Below the pieces are notes generated by a model. The model searched no databases, had not been told where the DNA came from, and saw nothing but the letters and a program-made list of their open reading frames with translations. A program made the position numbers and the translations under genes. Shown piece by piece: positions 1-730 of a stretch of DNA of 8,001 nt. Position 1 is the first letter of the stretch. The number at the start of each line of letters is the position of its first letter. The stretch lies in IMG/VR virus record IMGVR_UViG_2698536408_000011; one strand, given 5' to 3'. Source of the stretch: a virus. Lineage: Duplodnaviria > Heunggongvirae > Uroviricota > Caudoviricetes.

Positions 1-730
1 ATGCCAAACTGCGATCGATTCAGATGCCATTTTGCACACTGAGTACTTTTTAAGCTTTGAAGCTACTCGACCAGCGTTACTATTAGCATTGGTGACGTTG
101 GTTTTTTCAGCTTCTGTTAAGTCTGAATAGTCCAGCTTCCAAGCCTTATTACATTTAATCTGAGCATCGAGAATATCATTTCTGATAGCTGGAGCGTAAC
201 CGGATACATCGCTAATATTCATTAACTCTTTGCACGATAGCATAGGCGCGTTATTGCGTTCAGTGGTCACGTTACCTGCATTCTTCTTACTGGTCACACC
301 ACCGTCATTTGTGGTAGCCGTTTTGCCAGTGGCTGCTGAAATATCAGTTTGACCTACGATTGCTTTAAAGTTAATTTCCTGAAAAGTTAGCTGGATACGA
401 AGACCGTTAGAGATAGTAACATCTTTAGAGGCTTTAAAGTTGGTAATAATGGAATCGTCAATTTTAATTCCATCTTTACAGATAACAGAAATAATCTGCT
501 TCTGGTCACGCCAGTTTTCCAGAGTGTCAATGAAGTTTTCTACTAATTGACCCTGACGAGTTAATAATAAGCTTCCTTCATAATTGCATGTTCTGTGTAG
601 TCACCTGCATAGGGCTATCAAATTCCATGTTTTCAGTTGCTGATAAGGTTAAGAAGGCATCTACATTGTCTCTTAAGTGGAAATAGATGCCATCTTTGCC
701 ACTGTAACGAAGCTGATTAGTGTAAATCAT
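1..730 (-). CDS. Phage tail protein gene immediately downstream of the tape measure gene (minor/distal tail protein position); reading frame interrupted, 3' end beyond window edge
   Basis: ATG at 730..728 follows an AAGGAGA Shine-Dalgarno. That frame is open for 50 codons ([26 protein letters not shown]...) and stops at TGA 580..578. A second frame (+1 relative) is open with no stop from 600 down to position 1 (~200 codons, ...[37 protein letters not shown]...) and has no ATG/GTG/TTG for ~95 codons. The two pieces therefore most likely belong to one gene with a frameshift inside 581-600. Function is inferred only from position after the tape measure gene. Confidence 0.5.

Follow-up and report, generated by a model that had tools for sequence, protein, structure and literature searches.

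In phage Bas63, gp18, encoded by the gene after the tape measure protein (TMP) gene, is the tube initiator (TI), a hexamer with the tube-protein fold (PMC12609058). It acts as the adaptor between the threefold hub and the sixfold tube, and has a C-terminal extension of about 100 residues running through the baseplate; in the same structure, a C-terminal fragment of the TMP touches the hub and the puncture apparatus (PMC12609058). In Vibrio cholerae, the PLEs live as satellites on the lytic myovirus ICP1, and their chimeric tails combine ICP1 parts with a TAC, a TMP and a hub protein (BhuB) that the PLEs themselves encode (PMC12987554).

The DNA analysed here, called the window, was one strand of 8,001 nucleotides from IMG/VR virus record IMGVR_UViG_2698536408_000011. 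It carried a TI homologue with a break in its reading frame. Very probably it marks an inherited pseudogene of Shigella sonnei, part of a decayed mobile element and broken by the deletion of 74 bp.

Reading frames and family of the tail gene

Translation of the minus strand showed an ORF with an ATG at 730-728, 50 sense codons and a premature TGA stop at 580-578; the ribosome-binding site AAGGAG lay at 742-737, with a 6-nt spacer to the ATG. The +1 frame had a stop at 603-601 and, beginning at 600, no further stop in the 200 codons up to window position 1. The two frames shared 581-600 only (CTACACAGAACATGCAATTA), and no homopolymer in this overlap was longer than 2. A sequence-only reading had described the ribosome-binding site and ATG at 730, the stop after 50 codons, the open +1 frame, the overlap confined to 581-600 and the lack of homopolymers in it, and all of this was borne out; window 36-1, the final 12 codons of this open frame, was however the end of an IS21-family element and not part of the gene. 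The same reading held that the +1 frame has no internal start. The start-codon scan agreed for codons 1-101, in which ATG, GTG and TTG were all absent, and disagreed beyond them, the earliest candidate being a GTG at codon 102 (window 297). The features of this part of the window are listed below.

578..730, minus strand: 5' fragment (N piece) of the TI (tube initiator, Dit-like) pseudogene; translation, phrog_3721 positions 1-51 (E=5e-26), 9NDY_A residues 7-51
37..581, minus strand: 3' remainder (C piece) of the TI pseudogene, +1 frame; phrog_3721 positions 76-258 (E=2e-74), Pfam Dit_like, 9NDY_A
582..583, minus strand: deletion scar, 74 bp missing between 583 and 582 relative to homologues
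1..36, no strand assigned: end of the IS21-family element; S. sonnei-type locus L053 compared with L039 (an intact E. coli element), ends of the IS, duplication of the flank
731..886, minus strand: TMP-TI spacer, 156 nt, with the ribosome-binding site at 742-737 and two predicted hairpins
887..3067, minus strand: intact TMP gene, 726 aa; Pfam TMP_3 (E=2e-21), phrog_4036 (E=4e-93)

Positions 52-75 of the phrog_3721 profile were covered by neither piece. The chance of a 200-codon open frame, computed from the composition at 39% G+C, was about 2e-6. Because both pieces belonged to one protein family and the chance probability was low, the frame break was real and not a chance feature.

The protein family was observed directly. 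Pfam Dit_like (PF21821) matched the C fragment at 33.4 bits (cutoff 24.2) and an intact homologue at 72.8 bits. The Bas63 chain 9NDY_A, named "Tube initiator protein (gp018)", matched the frame-repaired window sequence at E=1e-90 and the TI of the intact E. coli element at E=9e-110, and the 3' remainder (37..581) coded for the counterpart of gp018 residues 77 to about 256. The TI gene came directly after the TMP gene (887-3067; TI start 730), in the same order as in HK3, garuso and Bas63. The profile matches and the 9NDY_A match thus agreed with the earlier designation of the gene as a tail gene downstream of the tape measure gene. Compared with gp018 (PDB 9NDY), the window copy lacked residues 52-76, was frameshifted and was cut by an IS, and the small chromosomal element around the TI gene had no genes for hub, spacer, tube or sheath proteins.

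The tube-like domain of the TI (window 271-706) shared about 93% DNA identity and about 95% protein identity with the Felixounavirus gene. Residues 1 to about 185 were about 95% identical to Bas63 gp018, whereas the C-terminal 75 residues or so of the element TI copies were strongly diverged from the phage protein. The dS between element and phage TI copies was 0.44, no larger than among the element copies, which suggests repeated exchange between the elements and Felixounavirus. The element TMP (887-3067) was only 31-33% identical overall to the Felixounavirus TMP, with conserved ends (23/30 of the first 30 residues and 11/13 of the last 13 residues). By analogy with Bas63, the conserved C-terminal end of the TMP is a known contact with phage-encoded components, and the other conserved parts of the TMP and TI would presumably be such contacts too.

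The two predicted hairpins of the TMP-TI spacer were strong and had stems at 874-866/830-822 and 791-779/760-748. The folding of the spacer RNA gave z = -3.76, and 0/200 shuffles folded as well. The spacer sequence was kept in the related element copies L002, L003 and L006, with one change from G-C to G-U. Neither a sigma-70-type promoter nor an intrinsic terminator was predicted in the spacer, and a regulatory role of the predicted hairpins is possible. In Felixounavirus, the TMP and tube initiator genes were seen to abut or overlap, without such a spacer.

The 74-bp deletion and its distribution

A single clean gap appeared when the region was aligned at the DNA level with HK3, a Felixounavirus phage of Escherichia, and with the nearest IMG/VR relatives (L002 and L003, 98-99% protein identity). 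The junction on the minus strand read ...CATGCAAT|TATGAAGG..., and both the deletion and its position were observed directly. Alignment to intact homologues had been proposed earlier as the means of locating an indel; the alignments placed a gap of 74 bp, not of one base, at 583|582. The sequence-only reading was therefore right to suggest a pseudogene, and the lesion was an internal deletion of 74 bp rather than a small indel. The deleted 74 bp made up 24 codons and 2 bases, so that the frame was shifted by +1. The junction split codon 50 (T|TA), and an out-of-frame TGA came directly after it. In the alignment with 9NDY_A, the missing part was residues 52-76, which fall within Pfam Dit_like (residues 32-148 of the intact protein).

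The alignments with HK3, L002 and L003 revealed no microhomology at the breakpoints. A repeat-mediated or microhomology deletion was considered and rejected, as the breakpoints shared no bases and a 7-bp repeat (CAGAACA) lay near the ends and not at them.

The deletion very probably inactivated the tail tube initiator gene, the homologue of the Bas63/Felix O1-type gp18, through loss of the counterpart of residues 52-76 from the tube-like domain together with the +1 frame shift. Translation from the ATG at 730 would stop one codon past the junction and give a stub of 50 residues. The remaining 180 or so codons, start-less for 101 codons, would not be expected to be translated. Stub and remainder would both be without function, and the loss would probably represent neutral decay rather than a selected change.

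The other homologous loci were directly observed to be intact. All 40 had one uninterrupted ORF of 255-270 codons; 12 were of the element type (E. coli chromosomes, and IMG/VR contigs whose host is not established) and 28 of the phage type (Felixounavirus). No naturally split homologue occurred among these 40 loci. A 121-bp stretch of the TI gene matched 260 of 5,426 complete E. coli genomes (about 5%), and in every sampled E. coli match covering the whole query, the 121 bp spanned 195 bp (121+74). A member of the family was defined by one ORF of about 255-270 codons with the whole tube-like domain, and the window gene had neither. With its stop after 50 codons and residues 52-76 gone, it was a pseudogene of the TI family and not a functional member. 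Among the element copies, the dN/dS of the TI tube-like domain was 0.09-0.16; such low values indicate that the TI gene is functional in the element family and that the S. sonnei copy is the exception.

An exact-product look-up found the truncated 50-aa product indexed in 2,281 blocks of a public assembly collection, and the identical 726-aa TMP was indexed in 5,607 blocks. Nineteen loci were fetched (L041-L059), which shared 99.7-100% identity with the window. The junction 24-mer was present in 19/19 of these near-identical loci and in 0/40 of the other homologous loci. One of the nineteen, CP041322, is a closed, hybrid-assembled chromosome described by its authors as Shigella sonnei. It was the only matching assembly tied to a named organism by the literature, the species of the other 18 loci being assigned from near-identity and the IS-rich context. 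The window was near-identical to CP041322-type loci, all with the junction; by sequence identity, its source is an S. sonnei-type chromosome, and every copy sampled carries the deletion. The exact junction was not found in IMG/VR and one genome per GTDB species (185,579 representatives), collections from which S. sonnei-type copies of the element are apparently absent. It was also absent from the 60 matches sampled among the 260 matching E. coli genomes.

This distribution bears on the possibility of a sequencing or assembly error, in which the true genome would have the 74 bp (or another indel) and one continuous gene. In L044 and L050, the upstream TMP ORF was called in two pieces, with 3 and 5 gap openings relative to the window, so some assemblies may hold indel errors elsewhere. 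The junction itself, however, was directly observed in many independent assemblies: the 19 loci came from different NCBI assemblies, closed and hybrid-assembled chromosomes among them, and 9 of the 19 had been reached by way of the TMP and not by way of the truncated product. Moreover, a loss of 74 bp without repeats or homopolymers is unlike a typical base-calling error. The sequencing indel offered by the earlier reading was refuted by the 19 independently assembled loci and the 2,281 indexed blocks, and an error has next to no probability. Just as improbable is a programmed +1 ribosomal frameshift within 581-600 that would yield a functional full-length tail protein. The 20-nt frame overlap ending at the zero-frame stop does have the general geometry of prfB-type genes. 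The overlap is nevertheless due solely to the lineage-specific deletion, and the junction occurred in no phage, E. coli, IMG/VR or GTDB-representative homologue. The shift site was judged against the established prfB, antizyme and Ty sites: at CAA UUA UGA A the P-site tRNA would be unable to re-pair in the +1 frame, the sequence matched no known motif, no Shine-Dalgarno-like stimulator lay upstream of it, and the local RNA showed no more structure than shuffled sequences (z=+0.38). Even after a shift, the product would lack residues 52-76 of the tube-like domain, and the IS severs the last six codons. With the junction not conserved, no motif or structure, and 25 core-domain residues missing from the product, the programmed shift that had been mentioned earlier was refuted. 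The window thus resembles prfB-type genes in a short two-frame overlap ending in a zero-frame UGA, and differs from them in having no conserved shift site, re-pairing codon, Shine-Dalgarno stimulator or conservation among homologues.

The split gene might instead retain a role, through the 50-aa N-terminal peptide, a re-initiated C-terminal fragment or both, for example by interfering with the tails of infecting Felix O1-like phages during their assembly. The promoter-proximal part, the ribosome-binding site and the ATG were all intact, the N-terminal 50 residues were about 95% identical to the phage protein, and the upstream TMP gene was intact in most assemblies. Against this stand the 101 codons without a start codon past the break and the fact that none of the homologues is naturally split; the later IS21 insertion, with IS1 in a sublineage, also argues against selection keeping the TI gene. 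A surviving role is therefore very unlikely, if less so than an error or a programmed shift. A residual role of the 50-aa stub is conceivable but unsupported. The same holds for a C-terminal product begun at a non-canonical codon or at the GTG at 297, and separate translation of the downstream part is unlikely. The frame break is neither a sequencing error nor a recoding site; it is an ordinary pseudogene, and one more example from Shigella.

The integrative element and its further lesions

Window 37-8001 was most of an integrative element of about 11.6 kb, and not phage DNA. Among 50,697 phage genomes, no close match to the whole window was found; matches were confined to the TI patch, at 93% DNA identity, and to short segments of the TMP gene, and the other 4.9 kb of the element had no DNA match in these phage genomes even at low stringency. 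In E. coli MSB1_9I (L039 4237-15818), the intact element was 11,582 bp long and lay in the 5' end of wrbA. The same gene order was present at two more sites, yciI/tonB and inside a DUF72 gene, in four other genomes (intact syntenic copies: L039, L040, L064, L065 and L066). E. coli ECONIH2 and 2012C-4227 are further examples of strains in which the element is intact. The order was small serine recombinase, Dam-type methylase, initiator, six small ORFs, an ORF of about 236 aa, TMP, TI and, last and convergent, a large serine recombinase with Resolvase, Recombinase and Zn_ribbon_recom domains. The parts of the element upstream of the TMP gene in the window were as follows.

7717..8001, minus strand: 3' part of the Dam-type DNA N6-adenine methyltransferase gene, cut by the window edge; mapped from L053 (689-1351, PF05869)
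3166..7334, minus strand: forward gene block of the element; ORF list and called genes
6381-7334, minus strand: O-like/DnaD-like replication initiator; phrog_428 "replication initiation protein", E=2e-10

The Dam call agreed with the RefSeq annotation of the E. coli relatives. About three tandem 22-nt iterons were present at 6903-6981, inside the initiator gene, and arrays of 22-23 nt were present in the E. coli copies; judged from these repeats, the array at 6903-6981 is likely to be an origin of replication. The block 3166..7334 also contained ORFs without known function of 68, 236, 101, 71-75, 73, 96-106 and 98 aa. The small ORFs and the 236-aa ORF had no Pfam, PHROG, NCBIfam or PADLOC match, and their comparison with the Felixounavirus chaperones, sheath, tube, spacer and hub gave nothing significant.

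The 236-aa ORF (3397-4107) was annotated in RefSeq as "transposase" in some E. coli and as "hypothetical protein" in others, and had no transposase domain. It appeared rich in coiled-coil-like stretches and occupied a position that would suit a tail chaperone or scaffold. The 71-75-aa ORF (5035-5262) showed 22/26 DNA identity with the TI N-terminus in L039. As a TI paralogue it was rejected, since the shared segment (GKDDIYLHL and GKDGIYFHL) was 9 residues long and too short.

At the wrbA site, the insertion (L039 15795-16400 compared with K-12 L061 4113-4709) replaced the first wrbA codons. The RefSeq wrbA gene at the insertion was 606 nt (597 nt in K-12) and started inside the element end; the insertion may thus preserve its target gene.

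A scan of species-representative genomes for the TMP turned up E. albertii and, in S. flexneri, a copy that was degraded and distant, and nothing else. The latter (L063, Shigella flexneri CP182556.1, 1059463-1079003) held a TMP relative of 37% identity in an apparently IS-ridden locus, the TMP being seemingly split into ORFs of 446 aa and 90 aa. It may be a further decayed member of the element family.

The S. sonnei-type copy carried several lesions besides the deletion. An IS21-family insertion of 2,637 bp, with IstA/IstB genes called beside it, lay in the TI gene and cut off the last 6 codons ahead of its natural stop; its 8-bp target-site duplication (ACTCAGTG) was at window 44-37. An IS3-family insertion split the adjacent large serine recombinase (integrase) in the lineage of the window, and in a sublineage of the S. 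sonnei-type assemblies an IS1 lay inside the TI gene, at about window 131. The deletion and the IS21-, IS3- and IS1-family lesions were each present in all sampled assemblies or in a subset of them. The frame break is one of several independent inactivating events at the locus, and since the TI gene and the integrase were also struck by IS elements, this copy of the element is a decaying fossil. IS expansion and the accumulation of pseudogenes, with gene decay, are typical of Shigella genomes. The locus is like such decay in having several independent lesions in one place, and no difference in kind was seen.

Comparison with phage satellites

The frame break itself is of small importance. It is useful as an annotation note and as a lineage marker, and not as a candidate recoding site; the element family is the part worth following. 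The intact relatives, which occur in about 5% of the complete genomes of E. coli, carry a selected TMP/TI pair whose interface regions match those of Felix O1-like phages.

The features that define a PLE-like satellite were compared with those of the element family. A large serine recombinase and signs of mobility were found in the intact E. coli relatives (three chromosomal sites), and a TMP and a hub-proximal protein of their own, related to those of a lytic myovirus, were present; an initiator and an origin of their own were indicated by homology and repeats only. No tail assembly chaperone was recognised; for the 236-aa and 68-aa ORFs upstream of the TMP, no similarity to the phage chaperones or to any profile was detected. 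The literature searched yielded neither a Felixounavirus satellite nor a TMP-bearing E. coli island. By analogy, the broken gene might be the fossil of an undescribed family of phage satellites that parasitise or interfere with strictly lytic Felix O1-like myoviruses through chimeric or poisoned tails, and the S. sonnei copy would then have lost both its mobility and its tail module. We propose these two points jointly and tentatively, as a possible reading that is on balance doubtful. The family could alternatively be a domesticated prophage remnant still mobile through its recombinase, or a defence island with decoy tail proteins.

If the elements do hijack or sabotage the tail assembly of Felixounavirus, they would be an enterobacterial counterpart of the chimeric-tail mechanism of the Vibrio PLEs. 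Felix O1-like phages are widely used in phage therapy and biocontrol. The satellite reading, if true, would have a bearing on both uses, and the dead S. sonnei copy would be a natural knockout.

The window copy is dead, and the likeness of the family to the PLEs is one of gene content. The intact relatives are like the PLEs in being small (about 11.6 kb), in having a large serine recombinase and a replication initiator with iterons, and in carrying a partial tail module (TMP and a hub-proximal protein) related to that of a strictly lytic myovirus. The hosts of the element are Escherichia/Shigella and the related phages are Felixounavirus, whereas those of the PLEs are Vibrio cholerae and ICP1. 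In both systems, the TMP has diverged from that of the phage, with an identity of 31-33% for the element and 20% for the PLE (PMC12987554); however, the tube-like domain of the element TI is about 95% identical to the phage protein, compared with 41% for the PLE BhuB (PMC12987554).
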